From: Trichoplax sp. H2
Taxonomy: Eukaryota
Reading direction: 5' to 3'
DNA: 64,000 nt
Assembly (NCBI GenBank): GCA_003344405.1
Contig: NOWV01000012.1
Location: 620,001 to 684,000, forward strand
The translations under genes and the position numbers were made by a program. Below are positions 25,891 to 50,090 of the stretch, piece by piece (positions within the stretch are counted from its first letter, which is position 1; each line of letters opens with the position of its first letter). The notes beneath the pieces were generated by a model, which made no database searches, was not told where the DNA came from, and saw only the letters and a list, made by a program, of their open reading frames with translations.

Positions 25891-27290
25891 TTAACAATTT
25901 GGTACGTAAGCAGGAGGTAGACCGGTAGGCTTCGATTCCATAGATTGTAGCGAGGGATAAAGGTTAAGAGGAGGCTGGGTAGAAGCGGCGTTGTCATCAA
26001 TAGGTACTTTCTTGATGTCAGTACTTGATTCTGTCTGATATAAAGTGCCAGTGGCATTGGAAGATTGATTCTTTTCTTCGATGACAACCGCTAGCAAATT
26101 TTGACGCTCACGCATAGCTTCGTTAACTTCACGAACCAAATAGGGCATGCGGATAATATCGATTAAAAATCCAAACGAAAACAAGCCAAATGTAATCGAG
26201 TAGATTGTTCCCCAAAGTGGTCTTCCTAAATAGAAGTGCTGCAAACCCAACATTCCGAACGGGAATGTCAAAATGTAAGCGTCGTCTAACTTTTTTTCGG
26301 GGCTAGGATTTTCATCATTTGCCCTTTTGACTAGTATTGGCATACGGAAAAAATCCACTAGCCAACCAACTCCTCCCATGCCAAAGGTGCATAAATAGGC
26401 AATTCCAAAAAAAGTGTCACCCAAGTAGAAATGATGAGCACCTAAAATTCCCAACACCCAGGTAAGATAAGCATCATCTAAATGTTTAATTTGCTTTTTA
26501 TGAATAGCTTCGGGGCATTTTTCTAGCTCGATTGCTCGCTCGTTGGCATCTGCCACTAATTTAGGCATTCTAAAAATATCATAAAGCCAGCCAATTCCAA
26601 ACATGCCGCAGGTGAAAGAATATGCGGTTCCGAATCCTTTCCTGTAGGCAGAAAAATCAGAAAGAAGTATCTTATCAGTTTCAAGATCCATAATGTCATT
26701 TATAATTTCTAGTAGACAATGTTAGTGACTAGTACTATTTTAATTTAAATTAAATTATCGATGATATCGTAAAACGAAATAGTGGACTGCGTTTGATTAT
26801 ACACATGATGATAAAGGTATGCAGATAAAGTTTCGTTAGAGCATGTCTTTTTCAACTACGATTGCGTAAGCTTTATGAAAAGGTAGGATGAAATTTATCC
26901 ATATCATAGAAACTGTTCTTACCTTCCTAAATAGAACTGATGTAGTCCAAAACATATACCCGCAGGGCCTAAACAAAGTATGTAAGCATCAGCCAGGTTA
27001 TAAATTTTTCGAGATGATGGATTAGCGCGGCAATCATTGACTTTCTCCACCAGATTAGACATAAAAACGAGATCGTATAACCATCCAAGACCAAAGAATC
27101 CTCCTGAAAATAAATACGCTACTCCAATTAAGGATTGACCCAAGTAGAATCGATGCGCGCCAATCAATCCAAGTGGAAATGCCCACAAATAAGCACAAAT
27201 AAGCGATTTACGGCGAATTGGTAAGACCTGGTCGTGTTGTTTATCTTGATCATATAGGTGATTTTTTAATTCGATCTCCTTCTTCGACAT
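25891..27290 (-). CDS. 4xTM2-domain membrane protein, paralog A (exons 26923-27290, 25891-26641; 372 aa)
   Basis: Four repeats of AY-x(6-10)-G-x-Hx/QH-FYLG...G..GWL.D...M..LV...N. Phase-2 GT-AG intron in YLG-R. Tail contains LYPSL and LPPAY. Confidence 0.9.
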
Positions 27291-27977
27291 ATCGGATAGT
27301 TGGTAATGCAGTGGGTAGCTACTTGCAAAACAACAATTTTATCTCTCGAATGAGATAAATTAAGTTCAAATGGCTGCACACTGGACAGGCCTGTGTTATC
27401 CACACTAACGATGATTAAAGTTAATGAAAGAAGAACCAAAGCTAATTTGCAGGCGAACTATTGCTGATAACCTTTATATACCTTCTAGATATGGTAGATA
27501 ACATTGTTGTTTTCTTTGTTTGAATTAGATTATCCAATGATCAACTCCTATATTAGCATGTTTATCTAAAAGCTTATTGTTCACAACGAGATAACCGATA
27601 CTATTTATCAGCATAGAAATTGTGACGGAGCTAGTTATCACTTTATACACTCTATAGCGTTCAGTATGGAACAATTCGTCGACGTTGGACGGACGGTCTT
27701 CACAAATCGTTTTTATTGACTTCATAAACTGAGCAAAAATTTCAAGACGACGAAACCTAATCGCCTTAACATTGGCAATATCCTTCAAAGAATCATCCCA
27801 AGTTGGCTTATGGCTGCTGTTGGCAGTGACTATCACACGAGTAAAAGCAAGCTAATGACGGATTTGTAGCCTTGCTATTTATTGATATCATCAACTACCA
27901 ACAGCTACCAATGATAAGATTGAAACATTACGTAAGAATAAATTAACATCAGCTATTCAAAGTGGCTTTGTCTGGAC

Positions 27978-28029
27978 CCTAGACTACGAGAAAAGGTAGG
28001 AGAAAAGGTACCTTTTCTCGTAGTCTATG
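27978..28029. mobile_element. 52-bp mini-element of the CATRGACTAC family
   Basis: tctggac|CCTAGACTACGAGAAAAGG...CCTTTTCTCGTAGTCTATG|tctatac. The inverted repeat is long and the flanks match at 5 of 7 bp. Confidence 0.55.
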
Positions 28030-29904
28030 TCTATACTTAAAAGCATTACTGCATACAGTTCATTGAGCATCTACCCTGCATGTCTATGCAGTTGGTTGGA
28101 GATTTTTTCAATCTTTATTTTCTTTCGGCTATGGTTATTTCTGAATTGAAGACAGTTTAAGTCATTTCAGGTTGCACCATTTACTCTGCATGCACTTAGA
28201 AAGGATGCTGGCAATATGTTTGAACTAGTCATAAAAAGTATCTTCAAGTGCTTCTAGTGCACTAGTATAGTACAGGAATTTACCGTTTAGTATAACCCTA
28301 TTTTTAGAAGTTTTACTGTAGACATTATGTAATGGGATTAAATGCCTTTATTACATATAGACTGATATAGTATACATAATATCATACTGGTACAATAAGA
28401 AAATGGACTTTGTTCACTGTTGCCAACGCCTTGAAAGTCCATATCAAGGATCTTTTGATTAATACTGTACAGTATTTTTAGGATTTGATGATTATCGTTA
28501 ATAAAATAGCGAACCACGAGAGGAAAACTCAGCATACTTTTTAATTATTAACATGCGGATGCATGTAATTACCGTGTGAGAGCATTACGTCAAAGGTGTA
28601 ATTTAGTGGGAGTGGGGTTAGGATACGTCCAGAAAATAGTTTATACCCACAGCCACGATTTACGCCTTCGTGCATGATATTTACTGTATTTATTTATAGA
28701 TGAGAGTACGCATACTTGACTGTTTTTTAGACCAAGAACTACTGAAGTTCAAATAATTAATTAATAATCTTAAAAATGCACTTCCATCTAGTGTAATACG
28801 AATGGTTCTCAATCAAACGCAACGCCGTCGATGCACAGTTGAGCTGATACTTAATTGCTCAAGCCACGTAAATGCAGACACTGCTATCTGGACTGACGTT
28901 TTACATTACCAACACACTGATATAAGTTAAACATTAAGAGTGTAAGATATCGGTTAGAACTAGTTTTAAACCTGCTATTATCAAGCTATGATAATATTAC
29001 ATTAACATTATGTTGGTCTCGTACCAATCTAACCAGGTAGTGTGCAGTTACATCTATAACTAGAACGACAACACTGTTCTTGATATATCAATACTACATC
29101 AACCTTTATAACTGCAAATAATGCGTAAAAACAACTAACTAGGATAATAATATACACACAAGGTGTAAATTAGTTATAAATAATCGTTTGGATACGTGAT
29201 TGCATACGTTAGCACACGCTCCACTTCAGGTATTGGTTCGATACATGGAAGAAAATCAACTCGTAATGTATCAATTTGTTCAAAAATGAAATGAAATTTA
29301 GCTCCGTGTTTATTTATTACTTGTTACCATAGAGGTGGGAGTAGGGTCCGCCGGCCTTGAATTTATGCATACGTCATTTTATTCGTATATCATTGGTTGA
29401 TAGATGCAGCCAGCGGAAGACTTTATTAGAAAGCAAATGTAAATAATAATTGGAATTCAATAAGAGCAGCATGTAATTTATTCATACGTAATTTATATAG
29501 CATCTTACTGGCTAGAATCATTACAATCAATGATATAGCGTTGGTTGCTGCTTCCATGGCATTGGATAGAAGAGTACCTTATCGATCAGCACGCTTATGT
29601 CAATAAATAATATCTACTGTCACTGAATTTTCCTTTTTTATGGTAGTCCTTTTATCAGCTGTTGGCAGCATTTGATTGATTTGATTATAATGCCAATGGG
29701 AAGGATTATTTATTTTCATTATCAGCCGTTAATATCATTGTCTCCCTCCCATTCTTAAACGATCAAAGCCGTAAGGCAAATAAAAGGGTTCTGTCCTGTA
29801 CTATTTAAGGCACAGCTCTGCCAAGATCGAAGTAAAATTTTCGCTACAGTATAAGCTAACTTTCACTTAAGATAAAAAAAGCGTTTGCCCATTTTTCATC
29901 AATC

Positions 29905-31294
29905 ATGTCGAAAGGAATGGAATGCAATAGCCCTAATAATTATAATCCAATGGGTGATCGACTGCAAGTCGTTCGTCCATCTCTACCGAAAAAATCCATT
30001 GCTGATGCCTACTTATTGGCATTCCCTCTTGGAATTCTTGGCTTACATCGCTTCTATCTGGGTCAAAAGTATCTTGGGCTTGCTTATTTTTTCTCTTTTG
30101 GATTATTCGGCCTTGGATGGTTGCATGATCTTGTCTTTATGCCTAGCGTAGTCAATCATGCTAATCGTTGCCGAGCTCTTCCACAAGAGAAGAAACCATA
30201 CAGTTTACTCGAAGCCTATATCCTTTGCCTCAATCCAGCTGGAATTTTTTTCGGTTTACATCAATTCTATTTAGGAAGGTAAACAAAATAGCAAGTACTA
30301 TTTCTACGGACTGTTTGCCAATGAATTGATTAACAAAGTAATCCATGCAATATACGTAGTTCTGATTAAAATCTAAAATCTATTACCATAGCGTTGATTA
30401 AATTATTATTATAACAAGTTCGATGGACGCGTAGTCAACATTTTAAGAACTATTTCTGTCCTGTATTTGTTCATTTACCATCATGATTTCTTTGACTGTA
30501 TGGCTAGGAAGGGATTTGGTACCGCTTATTGCTTTACGATAGGCTTATTTGGTGTTGGTTGGCTTTCCGATATACTGAGGATGCCTAAGTTAGTTGCAGA
30601 CGCCAATAAGCGAGCAATGGAAATACAAGCTAATCCTGAAGTTGCTAAGCAAAAGAAAGCTAAGAAAATTGACGACGCTTACATTTTATGCGTATTCGGA
30701 TTTTTAGGACTTCATCATTTCTACTTGGGCAATATTGGATTTGGTTTTGCCTATTTATTTACCATGGGTATGGGAGGAATTGGATGGTTAGTCGATTTCC
30801 TTCGCATGCCAATACTAGTAGCCAGAGCCAACGACCCTAATCCAAGCCCCAAAAAGCATCTAGATGACGCTTATATTTTAACATTCCCCCTTGGAATGCT
30901 GGGTTTACAACACTTTTACTTAGGTAGACCTGGTTGGGGTGTTACTTATATGTTTACGCTTGGCTTGGCTGGCTTTGGATTCTTGGTTGATCTTGTTCGT
31001 ATGCCCTTCTTGGTTCGCCAAGTTAACGATACTATAATTGAAGGTCAAAATTTACTTGGTGTTGCTATTGATTCAAACTATAATGGTAATCAACCTCAAT
31101 TTGGCAACAATCCCTCTGTGAATGCCTCCAATATGCCTTACCAAGCACCTAACAATGTTATGGAGACTAGGAAAGTACCAATAGATAACGGAAATACTGT
31201 ATTAAATTATCCACACAAAGATGTATATCCACCTCCACCATCAATTAGTACTGAACCACCACCTGCTTATGAATCAAAGGTTAACTTACGCTAA
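29905..31294 (+). CDS. 4xTM2-domain membrane protein, paralog B (exons 29905-30278, 30508-31294; 386 aa)
   Basis: Same four TM2 repeats and same intron position (AG|gtaaac...ctag|G). Tail contains PPPAY. Confidence 0.9.
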
Positions 31295-33181
31295 AAGAGA
31301 TCGCGTTCTGGCTACCATAAGCATAATCGACTCAATATTTGTAAGATTGCACAAGGCTTATAAAATCTTTCCTACTGTATATAGAGAATTTCCCTTCTAA
31401 TTTGGTGATAAGTATTATAGATCAATTTAGACCTTTTCTTCGCGAGTAGTCCATGCAAATACTGTAACAATTTCCTTTAACATAAAGGTTTTCACGGTAT
31501 TCTCGCAATTAATATAATAAAATTATCGCGAAATTATTTTTTGCACTTTTCACATCAGTTCTAATCGCAGGCATACAATCTGGTTGAACCTTATAGAATT
31601 ATGCATAGCTGGTCTGCCTGTTGTGATGATGATGATCAAAAAAATACTACATATTGCTCAGTTGGTAGCGATTTCTTGATCTGATGTAATTGTAGATTTA
31701 ACAAATGACGACTCAATCAAATTACCGATTGCTGATTCAATCACTACTTCGTTGTAAAGTATTATAAATCGTAAGCTATCATTGATTGATAACTGCTTAA
31801 GCTGTAAATAGCATTCCACATATAGTAAAGCTTTGCGTCCAATAATTATATTTAATTATGTATGTAATCAAACTCTAGAATATGTAATTATACATATAGT
31901 AACGTTATAATAAATGCAGTAAATGTATTTGAGCAATTTACATATTTTGTAATATTTCTTGCGCGCGACCAGTATTGTCTACTACAGTCATCCAATCGTA
32001 TAATGGTCTCTAAGAAAATTATTATGCTATATATTTGTATAGTATCTATTTATAAGTATTTATAAGCGAATGAGACTTTACTATAACTGGGTAGGTCAAT
32101 TTATAACTAAGTTGGGATGAACTGAGATATTTCTAGAATTGACGAATCTTCTTAATAGAAAAATTGTCTCGATATTCGCTATGTAATACAGACTTGCTGA
32201 AGTGAAGATTAAAAGGCATTAATTTAATAAAAATATACTGGTTCGATATAGCACCAACACGATTAACTAAGTAGTGATCGCATGCGTAACCTACAATGAG
32301 AAGAGTAAGGCCTTAAAATTTACCCATCGTATGCATGCATCAGAATTCAAAATATTTCATATAAATTAATTGGGTTCCAATTCTTAAATTTACGTATAAG
32401 AGAGACGGTTTTTTCTTTCCTGTAATAATTTGACATACGGCGTGTAAGCCACAATGCTTTTTATGAATTATTTTAAGATCTAGTCAAGGTAGAATGATAC
32501 ACGTATGATGCAACAAATGGTGTATGTAAACAATGTATCTACCAAAGTATTTTATTTCCACATAAAGCACTACCAATTAAATCACCTAAAATGCTTTAAA
32601 ATGTTCATTTTATTTTCGCATACTGTAGATTGTTCAGTTTGATTTATTCGTCATTTACGCTAAGGAATTCTAATTAAATTAATGATATTTTAATCGATAA
32701 ATATATCCATGACTTCTCTACATAAAGCTTTCTGCGTCACACTATTGTAAACATATTTCATAATGTGTTCGCTCTGTTTTATTTGAAAAATAATGATAAA
32801 TCTATACAGTGTAGAGATACTGATAAATACTGTGGCATATCAATGCTACAGCAAATAACTTTCTTAATGTATCCTGATTTTCAAAATGTGTGTAAGGAAT
32901 AACTACTTTCATTCTTAGATAAAAACAAAGAACATACCGATATACAAAACATGAAATAACATTATTATTTAATGCTGCAAAACAAAAACAGTAATTTCGT
33001 TTTCCAATATTTAATTCTCACTGGTATGGACCTTAATACATATTCTCCGTATCATAGATTGTCAGTACAGTTATTCTTTACTAGATTGACACGATGAATG
33101 TGAAATGGGATCAGGCATGGGACGAGTAGTAGATCAACCGTAGTAAGCCCATGTTGTACAGCAGTAATAAACAGTAAGGCG

Positions 33182-36100
33182 TCATGTAAACAGATGTATA
33201 GTTTCCGAAGGATAACCTAGTTCTTGTAAGGCTCTAGAATATAAATAATTAAGTTATGAAAACTGAAAGAAACAGCTACGCTTTGCTATATCGTAAGTTG
33301 CTATACAATAAAAGGTGTCTAGTATCTGCTGTTTGTGTAAAATTATTACAATAGCTTAGATAAAACATACGTTTCCATGCTATTTGTAAAAGGTGTTGGA
33401 CCGCAAACACATATCAATAGTTTGTCCAAATCCGTAACACCTGGAGGTGGTGGGAGTTGCTTATGAAGCACTTCTTTTGTAATCCTACCGTTATTACCTT
33501 TCCAATCAGGAGATGGCGCTGATAAAGTATGATATACCTGAAACCTAATACAGTAGATTTCATATTCCAAATTTTTAGAATGTAATACAGTAATAGTTTA
33601 CTATTACTACAATCTTATATCAACATGCCATCTTAAGTGAATTCGCAATATCGATAACGACACGCAACACAGTAATGACGCATATTTGTATTACAATTTT
33701 CTTAAAATTATTTGCACATAAGTGAATTTTCAATATCGATAACGATAACAACACAGTAATAAGATATATTTCTGCTACAATTTCATAAACTATTTGCTTG
33801 GACCTTGTTTTTTAGAATGTCTGACATTTATTATGAAGACAACTATCAAAAAAGGTATATTACAATTTGCGATATTGCAGTAAATAAAATATCATAATGA
33901 TCTTAATTGTACCTATCGTGGCTATATCGAACCAAATTCTCTAAAGAATCTTTCCACAAGATATCCTTTTCCGTTTTATTACCAAATAAAAGCTTAACTT
34001 GGCTGAATAAATTGAAATAAGAACAGAATATTCCTTCATTAATCCACATAAAGAATACCTAGCCAAGAAAATCAGCTATAGCAATAATCTATTATTTATT
34101 TGATAAAAATAACTAAATAAAAAGGATATTAACCATTTTGATTCCGGTTTGTCAATTATAAAATACCGCATTAGCTTTACCATTGGAGTAAAACCTTTTA
34201 TTTCGAGAAGGATCATTAAAACATTACTTTTCAAGGATAGTAACATTATCAGTAGATCAAATATCGTACAATAAATATTCGGTACCTGTTCCGCCAGCTA
34301 TTAAAATAAGTTGTTCGATTGATTCCAGACGTGAAAATTTAAAATTTCCCAAGTGTTCGCTAATTTTAATTGTCTCACCTAAATCATTGGCATAATTAGG
34401 TTTGCCTCTGCTAATCTCGAGGGCCTTTATTACCTAAGCTATTTTATTTTGCATTGCAGTATATAATTCGCACTGCGCATATACTGTAAAAATTATGAAA
34501 CTAACTTATTTTAAGTGAACCGAGAAATGGAGTTAAAGCGCCATCCTTATAAACTTTAATCATAAATGAAATATCACGACCATTTCCTGAAATATTAACG
34601 GCTTCATCAGGATTTAAAGAAACTACCGGCGTATAATTGCGGCCAATCTCCATGCCTGTACAGTACGCATACAATAGTCTTAGTTTTCAAGTATCTAGCT
34701 CAAAGATTCAATGAACTACAATACTATACTATTTTTTAAGTTTGAAATTAACTACTAACCACTCATTTCAGTTTGTATTATAAGGTGACGTCCGACAGGG
34801 ACGTGCATAAATGAACCTCTAGGTAAGGCTACGCCAAAAATCCAAGTATCGTGCGTAACAGGAGTCTTGGAAATCAACTTACAATCGAAGTAAGAAGTTT
34901 CTACGAAAAATTATAAGGTTAAAGGATAGATTAGACAAAAGCTATGCAATAACTACTAAAAGACAGTTTATTATATTTTGAAACTTATATTGATACACAA
35001 GATAAATCAAAATTTGGCGCTAATATCTTGCAAATAACTGATATCCAGGTCGATAATATCACCTAAATATGAGGAAAGGAAGAGGGCTCACTAATTCACT
35101 ATTCACATCCTCATTGAATAAACGGTGGATGGGTGAAGGGAGCGAGATTTGCCATATTTAGTAAATCTTAACTACCGGCGTTTAAGTCGATTGAGTGATA
35201 AAAGTGAAGGAAAGAAGGTAATGAACTTAGACATGTAAGCGAACTGCACGTTAGCCTTTCAGGATACCGTTTTCAGTCATGGGAACTAAACTACTTGCAT
35301 AATCAGTACACTCTAACTCCTTATAGTTCAGCATACTGCAAGCTCTGTCTACAGTACAGCATATTCAACGCTTTCACAAGTAAGTTCAAATATAGCATCG
35401 TCATATGCAGTAATACTACCATATCCAATATTTTGCTATATAATGTGATATGAAAATAACAATAAACAAGCATAAATGCATGACAAATTTCATGTTGTTA
35501 GATAAAGATACAGTAGTATCATCATCTACTAGCGTTCAATCTCAGCGATAACATTGACAAATGGCACTGATTGACAAGAAATTCCAAGAACCTATAGGCT
35601 TTACCTCTATTATTTTTTGGTAATAACTTGTGATGTCCTGACAGTTCTTTCCCTAAGGAAAGCCATTTTTTACCAATTTCTTGTTTTAAAAGTATCACTT
35701 CAATATTGCCCTCTGTCGATATTTTCACTACAAGAATTAGGATATAGAACAGATTAAAAATGATGAAATATCAGCACCGCATGGTATTATATTCTAAAGT
35801 TTATGACCGTTAAAAATGTACGAGCTTGCGCTAATTAAGCACTATGCAGTGGACGTCATAATAATGGTATTCATTTTATGCATCAACAAATAGTAAAAAC
35901 TAACCTTCACTTTCACATATTTCCTCGAAAAGGTCTAAAAAGTAAATTTATCTTATTAGTATTCGATTTTATTTTTAGACAATGTTGGTGTGAATGGCTA
36001 TACGTGTATTTACCTAAGCATAACTGAAGGATTTTATCTCCCAGTACAATCCATATATCGGTTTTTCTATTATTTTTCACATTAACGAGGATATCTTCAT

Positions 36101-38186
36101 TTGTTAAGCCTTTGTGCTTAGTATACACGACGATCGTAATCGATTTGTCACTTTGATACCAATCGTACCTAGACGTTAATGTTGAATAAGTTTACCATGA
36201 AATTGAAATAATTTATAAGCTTAATCGTGCAATAATAAAATAAATTATATTTAAAAATTGGCTACCTCGGGATAGGAGGTGATTTTTTTATATTTTGCGG
36301 AACAGCAAATATTTCTATGATTATAAAGTAACCGTTTTAATCACAGGCAAACTATTAACATAAAGTATACTTTGAAATCTATGATAAAGCTATAATGTAT
36401 GTTACCTTTTGATTGGGTCGGCACAGATAACGAAGATTTGGAAACCATGCTTCCTAAATCCATATTTTTATGAAATAATTTAAAATTATAAATTATCAAT
36501 ATAATTTCGTCGTTATAGTCATGAAAGCTATATATAAGCCATGAGACAGTTGACCAACTTTCCATTGAAATCAACATATAACGAACCGTTTGATTTTTTA
36601 TTCTTTTCTTTGCCGTCAACTCCATCAGCTATAATGTAACCTACTAAGCACTTTGCGAGCATCGATTCAACATTGACCCAGCGATGAATCTAAGAATGTT
36701 TGTACGCATCATTAATTTTAACATATTACCAATATCACTATAATAGCGATAACTGTGATTATATAATTGTTATTAGTAACACAGTTTATTAATTAGGGAA
36801 TAAATTTTAATATAGAAAGTATAACTTTGGAACTAGTGCAGTTAGTCTAATAATAATAGAAAGCATACTTCATCGAATAGATCTGTTCCGTCACAACCAA
36901 CACTCCTCATTAATTCGTCGATACCACCAGGATGGAACTTCATATAAGGAGTGATATTATAAACTTTCCCTAGTTAATAGAAGAAATTTATTTGTAAAGT
37001 CAGAAAAAAGGTGAATGACTATCGTATGCGTATGTCGGTAAATCTATTCCCATCATAGATAAAAATGCCAAGAAGGAATTGTTTCCAGGCGGAGATATTA
37101 TTATTAATAATTAGACTGATAGTGAATAATATCAATTTGAACTAATTGTTTATGCAGCATGTTTTAGATTGTCGCTTAATGTTATTTCAACTGCCACTGT
37201 TTACAAATTAATAAAATATGCTATAAAAATTTTCAATTTGATTCATCTTACTGCTGCGAGCGTATAATTTTAACCAAGCTACAAAAAGAATCTTAAAAGA
37301 GTTGAAGTAGTTACCAGCTAAAACAATAGCTTTAGCGTACATTGCTATAAAATATGCTACTTCAGAAAATAATATTTGGTCTTAATGAAACAAAATGGCA
37401 AATGACTACGGTTGCTTACAAATAAATAAATTCTTTTCTCGTTTTAAAATTTAAACTATTTTACCATCAAATTATAAAGATTATTATAGGATAGAGGTTA
37501 AGACTTGTATCCCGCAGTATAAATCTGTAGATTAAAATTACAAAACTACTGCTAATTAAACCTTTTTTTTCAATTCTCCTATCAACTATTGCAACGATTA
37601 ATTAATTTATATTGAACGCCACGTTTGATAGTACGATTCAATTAATATCACAATTTGAGGCAAAGAATCGAATCCTGTTAGGAAACGATCAATCGTTTAA
37701 TTATAACAAGAAAAGCTACGATTAACTTTAGGATATTAAGTAGAACTACCGTCTCTAGAACTCTACATTTCGTCTACTCTAATTTGAGTAGAATAGAATA
37801 TATTTTTTTATGGATGTTCATAAACACCCTTATACTATTCATTTTATAACAGAAACAGATTGATTACCTCGAATACACGTCCATGCATCCGTTTCAGTAT
37901 TATGGCGAGCAAGTTCATCGTTGGTTATTTTGCGTATAATGCCGCCAGTCCCAGCTAAATCTGGATGTTTCGTCCCTAACGTAATCCAATCTAATAATCC
38001 ATAACCTTTGCCTAGGATGACCTTTTTTCTACCACCATTGGCTGTTGATCCAGCGCTGCTTCTCTGTGGAGAATTAGCCATTGGAAAGAGTTGACCACCT
38101 TTAGGATTAGACATTTCTTCCTCTTCCTTCTGCTTATTATCGCTAGTGCTTACTGTCAATTGAGAATTACCACAAGCATTACCCAT
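33182..38186 (-). CDS. CYB5R4: Cytochrome b5 reductase 4 (NCB5OR; b5 + CS + reductase domains), multi-exon
   Basis: [16 protein letters not shown]...[13 protein letters not shown]; heme-binding [13 protein letters not shown] domain [42 protein letters not shown]; last exon [16 protein letters not shown] with stop at 33182-33184. Confidence 0.95.
33635..33797. repeat. ~85-bp direct tandem duplication in a CYB5R4 intron
   Basis: aagtgaatt..caatatcgataacga..caacacagtaat..atattt..tacaattt..tatttgc occurs twice. Confidence 0.7.
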
Positions 38187-39858
38187 AATCAGATCATCAA
38201 GACCAAAAAAAAATTTAAAGTTTTGCCCAGTCTCAAGTAGTCAATATAAACTTTTGAATTTCTTCACTACTTTGATGTTAATGATGAGAAGAAGTCCCAG
38301 AAATGAAAACAACACTAGACTACGGTGATTATTTTTTTGGCATACACAAAAAAGTTTCTACTATAGAGTCCAAAGTAGAAAGATAATGAGATGTCTGAAG
38401 TAACAGTAACGAGTTTTGTTGGATTAGAAAAAGAAGCAGTAACTTATCAACGACACACGAGTCTGTTTAACGTTTTGGAGATAATTTCTAACGTAATTAA
38501 ATAGAGATGATTTTCACAGATGATAATTTTCGTTTTTACAGTAGATTAAGGCATCAATTAAAAAAAACTAATTTAGCATAGCAAGGAATATATTCAATAA
38601 ATAGCTTAGCTTAACACGATAGCCCTCCACTACAGTATTTACTCTCTCTCTCTAATCTAAGTAGTGAGGGCGAGCAATACTGTACATACAGTATACAGTA
38701 TAAAATTATCACTAACAATTAATTAAATACAGGATGATAGACTATTTAGAATATGCGTTGTAAACAATTCATAACATTTGTTAAGGTTATAGTATAATCA
38801 ATTTTGCTTTAATAAAATTGGAGCCTAATACAAAGGTAGACCGTGAATATAATAGATTCATTTCAATATATATATATGTACATGTACATGTGTTATCAAT
38901 ATCATAATTAGTTTCTTCTGGTTCTATAGCGATAACAATAATACTATTCGCTACCGCATTGAGTACATCAAATTGTGACTTGAATTGCAAGCGCGCTTAT
39001 GATAGTTCTACCGTTCTATAATAGTTTTAGTTTTTAATTGATAAAACTTGTAATAATTGATTTTGTCTACATCTATTATTTGATATGAATCCTTTGCCTT
39101 GGCAACTATCTGATAATGATATGAAAATTTGTAGTACCATATGATCAGTATGGATTGTATGTACGTAGTGTTTGTCACATCTGCTTTTTCTCTATGGAAA
39201 CGTAGATTACGTTGGAATTGGAAAAGTTCTACTAACGTTATGAATGTTCTGATCAACATCTAGTATAAACATTTGGATATACAGTGTCGTCTAGCACGAA
39301 AAAGGTCTCGATTAGCATATACTTTACTACATGACTAACTGCATAATTTTACGCGTACTGTACTGTACAGTGTACAGTACAGTAACTGCATAATTCTACA
39401 GTATAATAGAAGTACTGTACGCGTACAGTACGGTACAGTCGCGCTATCATCATGACTGAGACAGAGAGACGGAAGTGATGGTTCCCTTTAGTCTAAGAAA
39501 TGTCAAGACGGATTATCTTTTACTGGTTATTTGAAAGTGTATCGTATATCTGCAACGGTACACTATATTGTCGGCGATAACATCTAAAAATAGTCCCTGA
39601 TTTTTTGGTGTGTTAATGCATCATCGTTTAAGCTATTTACGCTGAGTATCTGAGTAATCGGGGTTATTATGGCTGGGCCTACTGTACTGTACAGTACAGT
39701 ATGTCTAAAAATCAGTCTACAGTACAGTACAGTCAGTAGTCCAAATAAAAAGACGGCCGACCAGACCACAGACTACAGTACTGTAATTGAATCGCTACAG
39801 TGTACAGTCCTACAGTATAATACAGTACTGTACTGTACATCGCGACGCAACTGTACTG

Positions 39859-40199
39859 TACAGTACAGTACGATACGGTACACTGTATAGTACAAATCAT
39901 TCTGGGAGTACAGTACAGTATTTCACCCGGTGCTGTACAGTGTATAGTGTACAGTAGTTCTTGTAAATCATTCGGAGTACTGTACTGTAAGTACAGTACA
40001 GTACTGTATGACGAGACTAGCCGGTAAACGGTGAAGAGTACAGTACAGTACGATACGGTACACTGTACAGTACAAATCATTCTGGGAGAACAGTATTTCA
40101 CCCGGTGCTGTACTGTACTGTACAGTGTACAGTGTACAGTAGTTCTTGTAAATCATTCGGAGTACAGTACTGTATGACGAGACTAGCCGGTAAACGGTG
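39859..40199. repeat. Direct duplication (39859-40033 / 40039-40199) in a TACAG/TACTG-rich tract
   Basis: Shared cores aaatcattctgggag, tttcacccggtgctgta, gttcttgtaaatcattcggag and tgacgagactagccggtaaacggtg. Copies differ mostly by CAGTA/CTGTA units. Confidence 0.9.
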
Positions 40200-40295
40200 C
40201 AGTGACACCACGAAATACTGTAATTTGACCTGATTGTACGCAGTGTCATTGGTGCTGTAGTTGACCGCTGTATCGTTCTGTTGTAGCACTACAAA

Positions 40296-43200
40296 ATGTC
40301 CACCATCGAAATTCAAGGAGAAGGTTCGGAATCTGAAGAAGAAATTGCAATCTCCCAACAACTCCATAGCTGCTCTAATACACAAAGCACTGTCAACCCA
40401 ATTTCAAGCCATGGAACGATCGTAGCTGGGGAAGCATCGGAATCAGAGGACGATCAATACCCTAACGTTCAGCCAGCCCAAACTGTTCATCCGCAAAAAC
40501 CCAGGTACAGTACAAATACAACCTAAATGATTCGTCCTGCTCATTCTTCTACTCTAGTACTGTATTACTGTGCTGTATTTGGGGCTGTAAAGATACCAAG
40601 AAGTTAATCGACACTGCTATTGGACTATTTCATGAGTTTGCATTATATGCATAATTCAACTGTTAGACATTTTATTGATAGTAATGCTAAGTCAAGGCTA
40701 TCATAATCCAAGCTAAATGCTACAAGCTATAGACTGTAATCGAGGAATTCGAAATTAATCAATAACGCCAGGGAGGGAGAGACTACTCCCAAGAAATAGG
40801 TATAAATGGGTACTTTATTCCAATTTTACTGATGAAATATTACTAAGCAATGCTTGAAATTGACTGGCATTGAAATCGAAAGACAACAGGTATACCGTAC
40901 AATATCGTAATACGAACTCTTGTACATTTCTTATAAGATCTTCTACCCACCCATTGCCCCCAAAATATTTGTTGTCGTTGTACAATATCACAGTGCGTTG
41001 GCAATGATCAGTTACGAAATAGAAGTATAGTATACTTCATTCATTGAAATGATGATAGTCATTCTGTAAGTGATCTTACACTATTGTAATAACTGGCAGT
41101 GTAAAATAATCTCTTGCAGTCAATCTCTAGTTGCTTCCACATAAACTGGACTATCGCAAGATATCAATATGCAAAGGACACCAATTGCGCAACATTATAC
41201 CCGTACATTACAAGTGACAACAAAAAATTGATTACTGCATAAGGTGAATCTACCAAAATTACATAAAAATGGCAACACCAATAAAGCATGAACAGGTGTA
41301 CAGTATGTGGTAGACGTGTATGGTGAAAAAGTGCATGAATGGATACAGTAGTTGAATTCTCTTACCATACGTTTAGATCCTACGTGTCTTCTCTGCACCT
41401 ATATTGAGATATTTGCTGTGGACGTCATAAAACTCGACTGACTGTCAATAGTTGAAACGATCATGAGGCTTATTTAGACCTATCTACTCAAAAATTCTAC
41501 CTTTATAAGAAGTTAATGCTATGAAGATAAAATACAATACGCCACAATAGCAATTATATAGGCAAGAGTTTAGACAGACCTCATGAATTCAAGTACATCT
41601 AGATCACCAAGACCAATTTCCTTTTTTTGGTGAATGAAATCGCTCTTTGAAATCAGTGCATTTTAAATACACTACAGTATCATTCATTGTACGTAAAATA
41701 CCGTCGTACTGTACTGTACTGTACGGGTACGGCTGTACAGTACTTACCATTGTCTTCAGTACAAAGTATTGTACTCTACAGTACTGTACAACACGGCACA
41801 GTATTCGTGATTACAGTACCAACGAGTACAGTACTGTACACATCTGCCCAGTAAGAATATGAGCTTTGCCAATGGTAGCCATTTGCATCTTGTCTCAATT
41901 CAAGATAGAAGACAATCAGTGAATGGAGATTGGAGATCAAATACTGAGTCAAATTAAGAAGTTAAAATGGATTGTAAATGTATGAGCAGGGGTGCAGTAC
42001 TAGGCACTTTGGAGAAAAATTGAAACTACTTGAAGAGCATTTTACTCATAGTAAAAGTCCTTGACAGTAGTGTACCGGCTTGTAGTCTAAAAAGTACTAC
42101 ATTCATCATTTTCATGTTTAGCATTGACTGTGTACAGTATTGTATTTGTTTATTTATTAAGAGAAAAAAACAAAAACAGGAGTATTATACAGCAGTCAAC
42201 TAATAGATCATTTTAGAGTACAGTTCAGCCATGGACTACTCCAGGTAATTCAGTAGTCTATGGTTCAGCTAACTTCAGTATTACAGTATGGACTGATTAG
42301 ATTAGAATTATTGATCTGTTTTATTGACATTTTGACGCTGTCTGCCATAGTCTCCATACTCAATGGTCACCCACTGTCTTAATAATAAACTACTAGTCGA
42401 CGTATGATACAATGCTCTGCCCCAAAGACTGATGCATTCTGCACTCGATGGCCGCTCAGTTTTTACAACATTGAGATCAAATCTATAGGCAGCAAACAAC
42501 AAGAAACCAACAAGTGGTTTAATGGTTGATCAGAAGAGGTATCTTCTTTTACCTCTAGATAGTACTCAGACCTTTAAAGCTTTAACACTACATTTGTACA
42601 ACATAGTATCCCGCCAGATTGAAATCCTGGATTGTACGCTGAATCAGGAACTTCTTAAAAAGTCCCTGGTTGAACGTAATATGTGGTCAAGTGGTATTCG
42701 TTGCCTAGTATTCTTATGATTACAACTGTGGCGACATCGCATACACTTGCTAGCATGCCTGGGGTAATGATACATTCTTGCTCTAAATAAGTCATCATTA
42801 AATTCGTCAACATCTCGTATGACTGCCAGTAATCATAGTATTATTTCTGAACAAAATAGAAATAATCACATCTCTAAGGAGGTTGTCTTACTACTATACA
42901 GTGACTTTTGAAAGAACACAGGACGAATTATAGTGTCCTATTCTAGTGGACGTATATCAGAATTCAAACAGAGTATGATGCTATAGGTCATCCAGTTCGA
43001 GCCCTTGGTGGCACATACCGTATATGCTTTATTTATTTAAAAAAATACCTGTTAATTATAATTAACTCTCCATCGACAATAGTATTTTTGCAGACTTATA
43101 AAAATAGCGACTACACTTGATGCCAAGACAAAGGACTGCAATGCTTACTGTTAATAAATAAATAAAACAACTATAAAAACATAACAATTTTGTTGTATGA

Positions 43201-44512
43201 ACCATATTCTATAGCCAAATATTTCAGTTAACTTAGCTAGAATAGTACAATACGTTGAGACAGTATTGCAAAATTTTTCCTAGTTCTTACGTTAGACATA
43301 AAAGGAAAATCGGCAAAGACAGGATACACGCACATAGCCGTATACCATGTTACAATGTTTGACCCGAGATAAATTAATTTTTGATGACCCAATAGACCGC
43401 TAATTTACGTACGACCTCTAGTGTTAATCTTAGTGTCATTGATCAATGAGAGTATACGTGCTTGCTTTAATCTTTTACTTAATTATGCATTGCATGAATA
43501 AGTAATTATCAACTAAAGCTAATCAAATGTTAATTATATTAGTTTTAAATGTTGATAAATCGAACTATTTAAAAAATGTGCATAGTAAAGCTAGTTGTCA
43601 AATTGCTCAAGGGTACAGACCTCAGTATAGATTTTAACTTATGACAGGATAAAACCGCATTTGGACTTGTAATCAATATAAAAATATCGTCAGGTAGGAT
43701 AGCCACATCAAAAGTATTTCTTTTATCATCTTTCCATTAGATTAACAGCGGATACTGACCAGCAGTCAAAATCAACAATTTCCAATGATAACACTGTATC
43801 CAATGAACCGATCTCGCCTGCGTCAGAACTTTCTGAAACTCAATCTACCCAGAAACAAGAAAAGACAGTCCGTTCAGGAGAGAAATACGACACGTATGTA
43901 TTACAAATACTTGTAACTTATTCACTTCTTGTTGTGTGCAATCGGAACTGAGAAGATATGGATACGAGTATGTACTGTATTAGCTTTCTACTGCATATAG
44001 TATACTATGTTGAATGGGCTATATTTAATTATTAAGCGTTATAATCAATTATTTTATAATAAATTATTGCTATCTCTCTAATCTTTAGGTTACTACACCG
44101 TAAATTACGTAAGTAGAAGAAAATATAATCTACGATTGTATCTAAATAAAGCAGTAAGAAACGAAGTGAGCTAATATCGATCTGATAAAATATTTATTAT
44201 TTAGGCGAAAAAAATTTACAGTTACGAAATGAAATTAACGCCAGAATTACTGATATGTATAGTAACGCAAATTATAAATTAGAAGATACGGTTAATCAAA
44301 TATGTAAAACTCAATCAGTTCTACAGGTAATAAAATTTCACTTTATTAATCTCTCTAGAAGTTAAATCTAGTAATATGTTCTACATGTGCTCTTTTCTTC
44401 GTGTTAGGATATATCTCAAACTGTACATACTCTAAAAGATGATGCTGTAAGGGTTAATAACGCCGTGGATATTCAATTCTTTCAAAGCTTTTTGCCGGAT
44501 GTTAAAATTTAA
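40296..44512 (+). CDS. BLOC1S3: BLOC-1 subunit 3 (exons 40296-40504, 43741-43893, 44089-44108, 44205-44326, 44408-44512; 202 aa)
   Basis: N-terminal IQGEGSESEEE / VAGEASESEDD motifs; C-terminal coiled coil KYDTLLHRKLREKNLQLRNEI...FLPDVKI*. All splice phases are compatible with GT-AG. Confidence 0.85.
42230..42262. mobile_element. 33-bp mini-element of the CATRGACTAC family with exact 7-bp target duplication
   Basis: gttcagc|CATGGACTACT ccaggtaattc AGTAGTCTATG|gttcagc. Confidence 0.7.
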
Positions 44513-45166
44513 ATCTTACTACTACGCGCCTGTCATAAGCGAGAATACGAGATCAGGATATATACCATCAATTTAGAGTCCTAACTATAAGTTATGCTGG
44601 AACAAGCTTCAAGAAGGATTCAGTACGACTTCTTGCTATGCGTAATTTTAAATAGATAATTAATTTAAGAGTGTACATATACTGTAGTAAGATAGTTTCA
44701 ATAGTAACATTACCTTCTCACTCGATATAAATACTAGTTAGGTGAGGAAGCCATTAATATAGATGATCATTTTGAACCATTAATCTGTACAATTAAGCCA
44801 TTATTGCATTATATACTAGTAGTAGAACATTGCGTTCTGTTGGAACTCTAAAGTGAAGCATACATAGTTTTATTTTAGCTGGCGACTGTAGGTAATACTA
44901 TAGTAATCATCATTCTAATGCAAGTTAATGTACAATGTGTACTATTTTTAGCGGCAAGGGTAAGTTATCATTTTTATTCGAATTACTAGCTAAATAAATA
45001 AGTTTTGTTAAAATACAATTGGTAATGTTGCATAACATTATTACAGAATTTAATAAAGATAAATTATAACTTTAACTTATCGCAAAAATTGCATAAGTAA
45101 TTCTAAAATGATTCATTTCAATCGTAGATTCCTATAATTTCAAGACATTAGGCTTTTCTAGTTACA

Positions 45167-46330
45167 TTAAACCAATTTTAATAGTAATGTAAAGTATAAC
45201 ACTGTTTGATAAAATAAAGCAAAGACAAGCAATATCGGAACAAATGTATATAGGCCTATGATTACCATAATTAACATCAGCACTTCTAAAATGAAAATTG
45301 TCAAGGTATTACATGCAAATGCAACATCCTCTTTATTAATGTCGAGATTGTTTTCTGCTATGTAAGCTTTTTGTTCCCTCATTGCCAACGCAGCAGCTGT
45401 AGCAACGATTGTGAGACTAGCAATTATAGGCAGGATAATAAATAGTACATATAAGCCAGTAGATAAAGTTGGATCGATTGATGTCGATTGATGGTATGTC
45501 CAGCCAATGATACAAACGGGCACACTAGTGATAGCGGTTAAGCCAAGAGATTCAAAGATGTATAATACTACCGTTTTCGCAGCACTATTACCCTGATCAT
45601 TACTATTAACATCGCCTTCATCATAATGCAGCTGAAATCCAAGTAGTCTTAACGAGGTCGCATAACCAATCATTAGCATAAGTACGACCTTTGCTAGCAA
45701 ATCGAAATCAAAGCCATAGACCGCTAACAAATTAGAGCATACAGTATTATTACTAATATAATTAACTCGGCATTGGAGGCATCTTAGTCCCATGGGCATA
45801 TTTTCTAAATGTCTTAAAGCAATAGTTAAACAAGTCAGTGGAACTGACTGTAATAACATTGGTTGAGGTATTGATATTAAAGCTGCTAATCGAAAGACTT
45901 TGGAATCGTACAATTGCGATGTGTAAATGATTAATGCCGAGCATCGTATAAATAGGAAAAAATTGACAATCATGGTAATGCTAAAGATAAAAATATATGT
46001 TACGTATACGCCTTCGTATTCATGCAGTAAAATTGAAATGCGATATATGCCACAACATCGAGAGTGACCAGATTGGCTACATGGTGAAGTATTATAAAAA
46101 TGACCATTTGTATCTTCCAATCGATGAAGAAAATTGTTGAAAAGAGTCGATTGAGAAAGAATTCTACCGTTGATAATTGTATCCGTTAAAACCAGACAAA
46201 TGAAAAGAAAATTCCACAGCCTAATTTGGTTTTTATACCGCTGAGTATTACTTATTTTGGTCGATAAATCTCTCAAGATTCGAAAAAACTTGCCGCAGCT
46301 ATTTTCCACACGATCGACTAAAACTGCCAT
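45167..46330 (-). CDS. Uncharacterised intronless multi-pass membrane protein (387 aa)
   Basis: Long ATG-initiated ORF in AT-rich DNA with about 7-8 hydrophobic segments and Cys-rich loops. No family motif recognised. Confidence 0.8.
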   Translation of the reverse strand: MAVLVDRVENSCGKFFRILRDLSTKISNTQRYKNQIRLWNFLFICLVLTDTIINGRILSQSTLFNNFLHRLEDTNGHFYNTSPCSQSGHSRCCGIYRISILLHEYEGVYVTYIFIFSITMIVNFFLFIRCSALIIYTSQLYDSKVFRLAALISIPQPMLLQSVPLTCLTIALRHLENMPMGLRCLQCRVNYISNNTVCSNLLAVYGFDFDLLAKVVLMLMIGYATSLRLLGFQLHYDEGDVNSNDQGNSAAKTVVLYIFESLGLTAITSVPVCIIGWTYHQSTSIDPTLSTGLYVLFIILPIIASLTIVATAAALAMREQKAYIAENNLDINKEDVAFACNTLTIFILEVLMLIMVIIGLYTFVPILLVFALFYQTVLYFTLLLKLV

Positions 46331-47626
46331 ATTGGACTGTACACTAGTTAGTACATAACGTTATTTACATTACGCCAGTTTTAGAGTGGGTTTTAATGGC
46401 ATCCCCTTCAAGATACAATGAATGCAAGTAGAGAAAAGTGATCAGACGAATACTGGTATCTACCCAAATTTTACTTTATCGTAGATCGTAGAAATGGTAT
46501 TCCAAGTCATATCTGTGTCCAATATTACAGCCAATACCTCGTACTGTATGATGCATACCTTCAGTACTTGTGGTATGAATCATGAATGGACAAGATTGTA
46601 TCTATATGTTAATAGATACTACTATGTACATTACTGGATGATGTCCAGTTTTTGTCAACTCACAGCCCAGGCATCAATATGGTTCTAATTAATTCAATCA
46701 ATATTGCATCGTGATCATTTTGTTGAAATGATAGAGGTCACAAGAAACCACCTCTACGGTTATAAAACTCGTGTTTGCTGATCACCGTAAATCTACAGTA
46801 CTGTACACCAGATTTACAATGTGAGTGAGCTTGTAGCCATAGAGACCGAGGAAGAAGTAAAGTACCGTCTGGCGTCGATTTTTTCCCCCCCTCCATTTTT
46901 AACAGCTCTCCATTAGGAGATACCTAATGGAATCGTTCAATGGAGTAAAAACGCCACCCGAACCCGATGAAATGGTTGATCTTCTAACCCGAAATAAGTG
47001 CAATTGCTATACAACCACTCCATCACCATGGAAATTCTTCACCCGAATCTCCCCTCGAGTCGAATTCATGTCGCGGTTTCACGTTGACTTTTTCTTGACT
47101 GATACCTAGTACTGTCTATGATTGGATTACTCGATGCACCTATTACCTCATAGTACTGATGTTGTATCATGATCAGGGCTATGAATAATAATAATAGCAT
47201 GTTTTAATCCAAAGGATTCGGAGTTTCCTTTGAATAGTACTTCAAAATAATCCAACATTTAGCTTCCAAATGTCATTAAAGACCTACCGAGTGCTGCGCT
47301 AATTTGATAGAATAGTAGAAAGACCCCCAAAACGATAGGATAGGGCCTCCAAGTTGTACTCATTCTAGTACGGTACAGTACGCGATGTTATCCAATGACG
47401 TCATTGTTGTCCAACAGTATTGTACCGTTATAACAAAATAAAATGAAGCATTTGGCAATCGAGTCAAAGCGCTATCCACTGTTCCGCGTATACATCGCCA
47501 TTCCATATAGATTGACTAGCATGGGACTCGAGAGAAAATAGACAATATCATCCAACGACTGGATAGTGGCAACACCTTTCTTCTTCTCCAAATCCACTAT
47601 CCAAATCGTCCAACATAGCAACAGCA

Positions 47627-50090
47627 ATGATCGATTCTTCAAGTGCCAGTGCTTCAGTCATCATTGGAAATGTTAGCCGTCCAAAAAGTCAAAAATCCGT
47701 GGCTGATGCCTATTTGTGTGCTTTCCCTCTTGGTTTTTTAGGGTTACATCGATTCTATCTTGGTCAACCACTCTTAGGATTGGCATATTTATTCTCGGGG
47801 GGATTTTTCGGCGTGGGTTGGTTGCACGATATGCTCATGATGCCTAAAATTGTCCAACGAGTCAATCATCGGCTGGCTAATCCTCAAATTAGCAAGGAAT
47901 TTAGTTTACTTGAAGCTTACGTACTTTGTTTGAATCCTGGTGGCTTACTTTTTGGATTGCATCAATTTTATCTTGGAAGGTACAGTATACAGCATAGCGC
48001 ACCAGTTTTATTGTATTGGCTACTGCCGATACGATTTATACTAGTTTGAGCTTTGCATGCCCTTGCGGTCATTAATTAACCTAGCTCTTTAAATTAAAAT
48101 ACCATCAACAACAATACAACAGCTGCAGATCATGGTCAATTTTGTTATCATTATTTCGATATCGTGTACTACTCTACTGAGCTACATCATAGTAAACAGG
48201 AACAAGCTATTCGTTCAATTTAAATGACTGATTGAAATCGCTTTATCATCAGATTATACAATATACTGTACTTTAGTCATACTCGTACACTATTTTACAG
48301 TAATACATCCAATTCGTATTCATTTTCCTTTTAATGAACAACTTGTTATAGTAGTGCACACTCAATTTACTGAATCGATTTGTTCTAATCATATTGTTGT
48401 CGTATAACTTTAGTGTAAACCTATTTTGCTATGCTATGTAAGCGAGCATACACTTACAATTATAAAACATGTAAATCAATGTTTAGAAGTTCAATATGTC
48501 CAATGATGATGACATCCATGCGAGATAAAACATTCAAAGATGGACGGGAGGGGGTACTTCCATATCATTAATGTAGATGATGAACAGTTACATAGTTATC
48601 AATTGCAATATGCAATAGATCGTATTAGTGGGCCTACTAAAATACGATTAAATGTAGTGCAGGAGTTTATATAATAATACTTTTGCGAATGAACTGGAGT
48701 ATATCAAATTACCATTAACTTCTAGAAGTCCATGAAATTACTCACAGTTGATTTATTAAACCTAGAGGAGCTACAATACCTATAACAAATAATCTACTGT
48801 ATATTCGTATTGCCTTAGACCGTACGTAGGTAGAAAGCTGATCGCATACATGAGTCAGTTTTTTAGATATTACATCAAATTTTTAACGTATATACTATAT
48901 GTATTGCAATCTAGAGCTATAGCCTATAATTAAAGTAGGTCGAAAATAACCATCATTACTTTGGATCAGTACCCAACCTATAAAAAATATATCTGTTACT
49001 GTTACTTATTCTTTAAAATCTTAAATATTACTGTATAAATTACATCATGTAGGACAGTACCTACAAGTGTACGCACAATTTATTGTACTGTATATTTCCA
49101 TTGCTATGCTTACAGTTTACATACATATACGTATACGACTCTATTGTAACTGTTATTATAAAGATCAAAACTGGAAACAGATGCAATATCAAATTAAGTA
49201 GTGTTGAAGGAAGTAATTGTTGTAGATAGCATTACTTATACCCTAACAATATCTGCTTTCAATTTCATAGGAAAGGATTTGGGACAGCGTACTGTTTCAC
49301 GGCCAGTTTTGCCACTATAGGATGGTTTTTAGATATCTTCAGAATGCCGCTATTGGTAGCAGATGCTAGGCAACGTGTACACGAATCAGAAGAATCTCCC
49401 GTCGCTACTATGAAGAAACGACCAAAGAGACTAGACGATGCATATGTTATGTGGGTTTTTGGATTTTTAGGTGTCCATCATTTCTATCTTGGAAATATTG
49501 GTTTTGGTTTTGCTTATTTGTTCACCATAGGGATGGGGGGAGTTGGTTGGCTAGTTGATTTTTTCCGCATGCCTGTGCTGGTCAGAAGAGCTAATACACA
49601 TCCTCCAAGTCCTTTCAAGCATCTAGATAGTGCTTACGTCTTAACTTTCCCGTTAGGCTTTCTTGGATTGCAGCACTTTTATCTAGGCAAACCGGGCTTA
49701 GGTCTTACCTACTTATTGACGTTTGGGTTAGTTGGCATTGGATTTTTGGCCGATATTATCCGTATGCCATTCGTGGTCCGCGAAATCAATGAATCAATCG
49801 CCGCTGACCAATTGATTACTGTTACAGTTGACGAAAATACCGAGAACCAAAGCGTTAATTCTAACATAAATTCTCTTCAGGCTACCAATATACCCTATCA
49901 ATCACCGCAACCACCAACTGATTTACCTAATGAACAAGCTAAATCTCTGTTAATTACCGAAACTAGTGCAGATACGATTAACGCTGCAGCTGCTCCGCCA
50001 CAACATCATTTGCCTGAGCCTTATGGCCCACCTCCAACATATCAATCCATTGTTGATGACAATACTCCCGAAATTTCCCGTAGAAAATAG
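47627..50090 (+). CDS. 4xTM2-domain membrane protein, paralog C (exons 47627-47979, 49271-50090; ~390 aa)
   Basis: Same four TM2 repeats and same phase-2 intron (AG|gtacag...catag|G). Tail contains PPPTYQSI. Confidence 0.9.

Follow-up and report, generated by a model that had tools for sequence, protein, structure and literature searches.

The locus and its three TM2 genes

Three paralogous genes, here called A, B and C, lie in a stretch of 64,000 nucleotides (nt) of the genome of the placozoan Trichoplax sp. H2 (contig NOWV01000012.1, positions 620,001 to 684,000 of the forward strand). This whole stretch is referred to as the window and is numbered from its first letter. The proteins encoded by these genes are a real, undescribed variant of a known domain family, the TM2 proteins. 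A first-pass annotation made from the sequence alone had taken them for a local family and had proposed a single-chain pseudo-tetramer of TM2 hairpins with conserved membrane histidines, possibly a channel, metal-binding or trafficking module. The testable mechanism that we set out below is different from the main idea of that annotation. Coordinates are collected in Table 1.

Table 1. Parts of genes A, B and C in the window (aa, amino acids)
Feature	Position	Strand	Description
Gene A exon 1	26923..27290	-	TrispH2_001896 by gene order; short N-tail, TM2 module 1 (27218-27036), first half of module 2
Gene A intron	26642..26922	-	281 nt, GT-AG, phase 2, in module 2
Gene A exon 2	25891..26641	-	remainder of module 2, modules 3 (26499-26317) and 4 (26307-26122), 76-aa tail
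Gene A PPxY	25906..25917	-	PPAY, residues 365-368
Gene B exon 1	29905..30278	+	TrispH2_001897 by gene order; module 1 (29980-30165), first half of module 2
Gene B intron	30279..30507	+	229 nt, GT-AG, phase 2; skipped in contigs of 3/4 runs
Gene B exon 2	30508..31294	+	remainder of module 2, modules 3 (30647-30832) and 4 (30842-31027), 88-aa tail
Gene B PPxY	31259..31270	+	PPAY, residues 376-379
Gene C exon 1	47627..47979	+	TrispH2_001899 by gene order; module 1 (47678-47866), first half of module 2
Gene C intron	47980..49270	+	1291 nt, GT-AG, phase 2; skipped in contigs of 2/4 runs
Gene C exon 2	49271..50090	+	remainder of module 2, modules 3 (49413-49595) and 4 (49608-49790), 99-aa tail
Gene C PPxY	50031..50042	+	PPTY, residues 372-375

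The spliced products are 372 (A), 386 (B) and 390 aa (C) long, and pairwise protein identity is 60% for A–B, 55% for A–C and 59% for B–C. All three introns interrupt the Arg codon of the YLGR motif in module 2. The earlier claim of three paralogs with a common phase-2 intron in repeat 2 is thereby borne out in full. Intron evidence from RNA-type contigs covers B and C in four runs (Table 1); for the C intron a third run contributes a matching loose end. Spliced A is identical to the database protein P0002 and spliced B to P0001, both from Trichoplax sp. H2. Gene C shares 245 of 248 residues with T. adhaerens TRIADDRAFT_56542 (P0018; window 49344-50087). The latter model begins within exon 2 and thus lacks module 1 and most of module 2, unlike the full-length gene C that is spliced in the RNA-type contigs. 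In the published gene order from TrispH2_001895 to 001899, exportin-4 is followed by two TM2 genes, cytochrome b5 reductase 4 and a third TM2 gene (PMC10580291; this and the other papers are cited for the available parts of their text and supplements), and our reading of the neighbouring open reading frames (ORFs) agrees with it.

In a tree of 29 rows A, B and C, the T. adhaerens gene-C fragment and four further fragments form one branch (100/99), and therefore the triplication is placozoan. The three-gene cluster is an ordinary placozoan duplication, and A, B and C are placozoan duplicates of an old, uncharacterised multi-TM2 family. Paralogs beyond the window were checked via the published orthology table (PMC10580291 supplement).

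TM2 modules and class assignment

Pfam finds PF05154 (cut-off 27.9) in four stretches each in B (158.7 bits) and A (152.4 bits), which is the domain count that the first-pass annotation had suggested making, and no other Pfam family in these two proteins. Gene C, presented to Pfam as two exon pieces, yields 1 + 2 stretches (60.8 and 82.2 bits) and has four modules by our own TM2 profile, so that four tandem modules per protein are confirmed. At the position of the TM2 'DRF' motif modules 1–4 read HRF, HQF, HHF and QHF, in this order, in all three paralogs, just as had been noted; DRF itself occurs in none of their 12 modules. Only 17–25 residues lie N-terminal of module 1, and a hydropathy scan detects no hydrophobic segment there, in agreement with the stated lack of a signal peptide and ectodomain. 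The lack of a J-domain likewise holds, there being no DnaJ match in Pfam for A, B or C. NCBIfam matched none of six proteins.

Two groups of named proteins have to be compared with the window genes. TM2D1-3/almondex proteins share PF05154 and have reported endosomal and Notch-trafficking links. They possess a signal sequence, an ectodomain, a single TM2 and DRF (PMC8714088), all of which differ from the window proteins. In the published supplements the three window genes are labelled DNAJC22 by homology, this being the nearest human name (PMC10580291), and the first-pass annotation had pointed to the same homologue. DNAJC22/Wurst resembles them in having TM2 near the N-terminus and a cytosolic effector at the C-terminus, and it shares the fibre-cell expression module with gene A. 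It differs by one TM2, further transmembrane segments and a J-domain, as opposed to four TM2, a PPxY tail and no J-domain. Moreover, placozoans have separate TM2D1, TM2D2 and TM2D3 orthogroups as well as a separate TM2/DnaJ gene in all four species of the orthology table (PMC10580291). Judged by sequence, the window proteins are TM2 family members but neither TM2D nor DNAJC22. The DRF of TM2D, a group taken here by description and not by sequence, is probably a special case. The TM2 domain itself has been described as having no known molecular function (PMC10409296, PMC8714088).

PPxY, RING and UBX at the C-terminus

In A, B and C module 4 is followed by a low-complexity tail of 76–99 aa with a PPxY motif 5–19 residues from the C-terminus (3/3). 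This tail with its PPxY was overlooked in the first-pass annotation. PPxY is present in 82 of the 104 relatives that combine four or more modules with a tail of 40 aa or longer, compared with 15.8 ± 3.6 (maximum 28) in 500 composition-preserving shuffles of the same tails, a null that ignores descent. For relatives with two or three modules the corresponding numbers are 33 of 78 and 6.7 expected. The last PPxY lies at a median distance of 20 residues from the C-terminus (64 tails). A RING is recognised by our own pattern in 6 of the 104, and either PPxY or RING in 87. Specifically, Capsaspora CAOG_06335 has both, its RING being a precomputed PF13920; Pfam RING matches over the cut-off are found in Fabomonas P0176 and in a second protein, P0052, and the ctenophore RING is recognised by our own pattern and by its visible Cys/His spacing. 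A third kind of partner, a UBX domain identified by Pfam, occupies the C-terminal end of Soliformovum P0087 and of two further proteins. The presence of three different parts of the ubiquitin system at the same end of the protein in distant lineages is the strongest functional clue.

The tails were also inspected for other motifs. Dileucine-like motifs follow module 4 in A and B only, and YxxPhi motifs are scattered. A ubiquitin-interacting motif in front of the UBX domain was considered and dropped, as our own pattern matched none.

Breadth of the family and number of repeats

Multi-TM2 proteins from molluscs, annelids, the brachiopod Lingula, echinoderms, hemichordates, two ctenophores and Capsaspora are named among the matches listed by three homologue searches and a profile-free library search, and look-up added the protists Soliformovum and Fabomonas. 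With such relatives the family is not a local one, contrary to what had been proposed. Three of these searches list 51 of 51, 120 of 199 and 120 of 257 hits, and their named rows include none from vertebrates, arthropods, nematodes, cnidarians, sponges, fungi or plants, which does not prove absence. The first-pass annotation had counted its proposal as lost if this architecture belonged to a widespread and characterised family. It is widespread, but no paper describing the family was found, and the literature searched, which did not cover subscription journals and preprint supplements, contains no description of multi-TM2 proteins or of a link between TM2 and ubiquitin. The 4x TM2 architecture is already visible in databases and in one published table, where it stands without comment.

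Of 300 proteins, 21 short ones of bacterial type and 24 near-duplicates within clusters were set aside, which left 255 eukaryote-type relatives to be counted. They have one (7 proteins), two (68), three (68), four (100), five (3), six (8) or seven (1) modules, many of the short ones being fragments. Some proteins with 3, 6 or 7 modules look complete, among them six-module ones from Mercenaria, Lingula and Anneissia. Four modules is the commonest count in the family but not a fixed one. Correspondence between module positions, expressed as a centred diagonal, is 1.08 among the three paralogs and 0.25–0.41 within molluscs and annelids. Position-by-position descent of the four modules across phyla was rejected: the value is 0.01–0.07 between Trichoplax and bilaterians, 0.04 for Capsaspora and −0.06 for ctenophores.

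Bacteria have TM2 proteins with two modules, and relatives of one of them occur in Bacteriovoracaceae, Planctomycetaceae and a proteobacterium (5 of 12 loci near-full-length). In the ESM Atlas only bacterial TM2 clusters were retrieved, at 0.89; with TM2 skipped, the clusters were unnamed and at 0.85 or lower. The bacterial two-repeat proteins (labelled 'NINE' or YozV, ~130–170 aa) resemble the window proteins in their tandem modules and in Gly18, His20, Thr/Ser36 and Asp47. Unlike these they have two modules only, no tail or effector and an acidic C-flank; their role is likewise undescribed. A further architecture is represented by P0088, P0144 and P0182, a set including MMETSP protists, in which three TM2 modules stand behind a conserved region of ~200 aa, rich in Cys and basic residues. 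This region has no Pfam match and appears to be a fourth kind of partner domain, as yet unexplained.

Histidines in the TM2 modules

Residue counts were made on 335 modules of four-repeat proteins, near-duplicates included. Asp47 is present in 335/335, Tyr33 in 323/335, His20 in 315/335 and His21 in 267/335. In the short bacterial-type two-repeat proteins (n=20) a His-Arg pair occupies positions 20–21 in 40/40 modules. Thus His20 is ordinary in TM2 modules from bacteria onward, and His21 is a feature of eukaryotic multi-TM2 proteins, the bacterial-type modules having Arg there. In A, B and C alike position 20 is H, H, H, Q and position 21 is R, Q, H, H in modules 1–4. A symmetric four-His ring is impossible at either position because His is found in three of four modules at position 20 and in two of four at position 21. 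An asymmetric His site may exist in the window proteins. The conserved membrane histidines put forward in the first-pass annotation are not distinctive: the first His is found in all 40 modules of the bacterial type, and none of the positions carries His throughout the four modules.

Predicted structure and topology

An AlphaFold2 model of the gene B protein, made with 49 sequences, has a mean predicted local distance difference test score (pLDDT) of 83.4 and a predicted template modelling score (pTM) of 0.70, with 299 of 386 residues at pLDDT 70 or above and a disordered tail. By rough arithmetic two independently placed halves would give a pTM of ~0.4. In this model the four modules probably form one rigid compact body, which could be arranged as a ring or as a row. 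The six-module Mercenaria model (pTM 0.54) does not separate a closed four-ring from an open array. Of the idea of a single-chain pseudo-tetramer, the compact four-module unit is retained; four-fold order as a family feature is not, given proteins with 1–7 modules and positions that do not match across phyla. A complex prediction of modules 1–2 with modules 3–4 and two Zn scored 0.00 twice; the alignment was not used in it, and it was counted neither for nor against.

Module 1 of the model consists of short helices of 8, 4, 5, 14 and 8 residues followed by one of 13 residues. The first uncharged stretch is 12 residues long, the second ~20 residues and Gly-rich. Covariation was analysed by a mean-field method on 713 distinct modules with 60 column shuffles as the null; note that this null ignores descent and that some pairs could be inter-module. 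Pairs over the null maximum are F22-L34, F22-G30, H21-R26, L32-L39, W11-L48, W11-W44, W11-H20, Y8-M51 and Y33-G38. W29-R50, R26-R50, G25-A58 and W11-Y23 are consistent pairs under the null maximum. W11-H20 together with the loop-to-C-helix pairs would place the start of the module, the His loop and the end on one face, i.e. make two re-entrant hairpins. On the basis of covariation, the chances that the modules are re-entrant rather than membrane-spanning are about even. A capping of the helix at Gly18 by Asp47 was also considered and rejected, its coupling having shrunk to 0.35 under a pair-wise null with a maximum of 1.62. The TM2D1-3 termini are reported to be lumenal; the PPxY, RING or UBX end of multi-TM2 proteins would have to be cytosolic. 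The available part of PMC10684865 has nothing on TM2 topology.

Searching the PDB by sequence gave two matches only (E 0.77 and 0.86), which we take as chance. Foldseek with the gene B model against the PDB returned nothing at E 0.001 or better, and the best Z in VIA-align was 4.2 among 48161 chains. Against viral models nothing reached E 0.001 either, and three weak rows were obtained (probability 0.77–1.0, 52–80 columns), one of them named TM2 domain protein. The blank in the fold search does not show that the fold is new.

Expression of the placozoan genes

The expression data are module-level supplement tables (PMC10580291), in which the TM2/TM2/TM2/TM2 architecture is listed for four placozoan genes. 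Gene A belongs to the fibre-cell module (score 0.592) and one placozoan 4xTM2 gene to a gland module (0.619). The H23 orthologue of gene A is placed in the unannotated 350-gene module green (0.564) alongside the H23 WWP1-like C2-WW-HECT ligase. HoiH23_PlH23_004663, also 4xTM2, is found in module darkturquoise (0.665) with TSG101, CHMP2A, IST1, TOM1L2, VCP and LAMP2. Community gc032 of darkturquoise is enriched for multivesicular body assembly (p 3.1e-23) and Snf7 (p ~1e-23) and also holds the WWP1-like ligase of Hoilungia hongkongensis. The true DNAJC22 is in the fibre module in four of four species (all PMC10580291). Fibre cells are macrophage-like and phagocytose (PMC8639732).

Proposed function and alternatives

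We propose that multi-TM2 proteins are membrane adaptors that link TM2 repeats to ubiquitin-dependent endolysosomal sorting, a proposal that we hold to have an even chance of being right. According to it, the TM2 repeats would pack as one membrane-embedded body, probably made of short re-entrant helices that enter in pairs from the side of the cytosol. In the endosomal, phagosomal or plasma membrane this body would contact a lipid domain or membrane proteins that are its clients. The PPxY, on the cytosolic side, would bind the WW domains of a Nedd4-family HECT ligase (in placozoans a WWP1-like one), and clients together with the adaptor itself would be ubiquitinated and handed to the endosomal sorting machinery ESCRT and the multivesicular body. 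Such action would be like that of NDFIP or TMEM127, without kinship. NDFIP1/2 and TMEM127 are also small multi-helix membrane proteins with PPxY, which is cytosolic in these adaptors and presumably here; TMEM127 binds WWP2 via one C-terminal PPAY (PMC7342019). Unlike the window proteins they have a demonstrated adaptor role, and no Pfam domain is common to both. Placozoans have an NDFIP1 of their own (PMC10580291). The trafficking option of the first-pass annotation is supported. The PPxY, RING and UBX ends and the one copy in the ESCRT/multivesicular-body expression module count in favour of the adaptor proposal. According to the literature an endosomal screen picked up TM2D genes as hits, and DNAJC22/Wurst has an endocytic role (PMC10409296); the available part of PMC10013729 mentions neither TM2D nor DNAJC22. 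Capsaspora combines PPxY with RING, ctenophores have RING only, and placozoans and bilaterians PPxY only. This distribution would fit the replacement of a built-in ligase by a recruited one, the direction not being fixed by the data.

Several observations weigh against the adaptor proposal. WW binding, the client and ubiquitination are all inferred, and PPxY can be merely the protein's own sorting signal. Of the four placozoan 4xTM2 genes with an assigned module just one falls in the ESCRT module, and the remaining three are in fibre, gland and unannotated modules. The module scores are middling, with counted module sizes of 219–544 genes, and neither gene B nor gene C of Trichoplax sp. H2 occurs in any module listed in the supplement tables. 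The 104 tails are not independent and come mostly from molluscs, and 17 of them are without PPxY and RING (two of these being UBX proteins), including three six-module proteins, one from the bivalve Mercenaria. The ctenophore RING lacks Pfam support. As for the re-entrant topology, its covariation signal is modest, with the loop-to-C-helix pairs under the null maximum, and the charges of bacterial modules, positive in the loop and acidic in the C-flank, suit an ordinary two-pass hairpin.

The same structural data can be read differently. Short broken helices in module 1 of the model, a first uncharged stretch of only 12 residues, the U-turn implied by W11-H20 covariation and the freely varying number of repeats would all suit a structural or lipid-shaping endosomal scaffold whose repeats wedge into one leaflet, and whose PPxY sorts the protein itself as ligase cargo, not as an adaptor. 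Co-expression with ESCRT is equally compatible with it. We consider such a scaffold rather unlikely: it leaves unexplained why Capsaspora, Fabomonas, ctenophores and Soliformovum have RING or UBX, domains that act on other proteins, in the place of that tail end. A PPxY motif serves as a down-regulation signal in Nedd4-controlled channels, and re-entrant helices are common in channels. Both points would agree with a reading that takes up the idea of the first-pass annotation, in which one chain forms a pseudo-tetrameric channel or transporter, or senses metal or pH, by means of membrane histidines, as would the compact four-module model, the prevalence of four modules (100 of 255) and the polar residues in the hydrophobic part, namely Asp47, His20 and Tyr33, invariant or nearly so, and the second His. 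It is important to note, however, that apparently complete proteins have 3, 6 or 7 modules, that the window proteins have no position with His in every one of their modules, and that His20 is generic in bacterial-type modules. His21 covaries with loop residues 26 and 29, which puts it at the membrane surface, and if the modules are re-entrant from one side there is no membrane-spanning path. For these reasons a channel or sensor is unlikely.

Another possibility is that the proteins act in the endoplasmic reticulum (ER) as a membrane quality-control factor, similar to ER-associated degradation with p97, and not in endosomes. UBX fusions, membrane RING fusions and the J-domain fusion in DNAJC22 are in line with this, and VCP and NSFL1C are in the same expression module of the published tables. 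Since the PPxY of the window proteins points to Nedd4-family ligases of the plasma membrane and endosomes, and ESCRT and lysosome terms dominate that expression module, an ER role is very unlikely. It is similarly improbable, if not more so, that the window proteins correspond to the TM2D1-3 set in fused form and act on Notch or gamma-secretase. The architecture is found also in Capsaspora and non-opisthokont protists, which are not known to have Notch signalling; the window proteins have no DRF, signal sequence or ectodomain, and in placozoans the three TM2D orthogroups exist separately. What speaks for it is the common TM2 domain, together with the inhibition of Notch, at the step of gamma-secretase, by Almondex's TM2 domain in isolation (PMC8714088).

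Beyond the adaptor proposal for multi-TM2 proteins, TM2 might be a general one-sided (double re-entrant), client-recognising membrane module that eukaryotes have wired to disposal machinery more than once, i.e. to RING, to HECT ligases via PPxY, to p97 via UBX and to Hsp70 via the J-domain of DNAJC22; this generalisation we regard as doubtful. If this generalisation were true, multi-TM2 proteins would form a class of membrane E3 ligases or adaptors that is older than animals, has escaped recognition and is not encountered in the usual model animals, and a first biochemical role would be found for a domain shared with the Alzheimer-linked TM2D3. TM2 is the conserved core of TM2D3 and DNAJC22, and it has no solved relative by sequence or fold. 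With the putative effector (PPxY, RING or UBX) in plain view, the role of TM2 is open to WW-binding, ligase and client-capture assays on a single chain. The family may also provide a case in which, around the time animals arose, a recruited HECT ligase took the place of a built-in RING ligase.

Other features of the window

Between genes B and C, at ~32600-41400 on the minus strand, lies a multi-exon gene for which joints in RNA-type contigs reveal 13 introns or more; by the published order it is cytochrome b5 reductase 4. A short TACAGTAC-rich dispersed repeat at 39350-41730, and also at 46790-46810, attracts, in each of the four runs, many loose ends and joints that belong to other loci, and resembles a small repeated element. 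Just upstream of gene C, the opposite strand carries an ORF of 397 aa in one exon (45167-46360); several of its stretches are hydrophobic, and Pfam finds no match to it. By gene number only it is possibly Tadh_TriadG56541/TrispH2_001900, and TrispH2_001900 is in the lipophil-cell module (0.807) of the published tables. Further away, a proline/serine-rich ORF at 6243-7088 (minus strand) contains three tandem repeats of 54 aa (162 nt) at 6520-7007 with a 95% match and has a sub-threshold Pfam hit only. An ADAM-type metalloprotease (reprolysin and disintegrin) is encoded at 8075-9760 on the minus strand in one uninterrupted frame of 561 aa, and a single-exon rhodopsin-family G-protein-coupled receptor of 421 aa at 54995-56260 on the plus strand.

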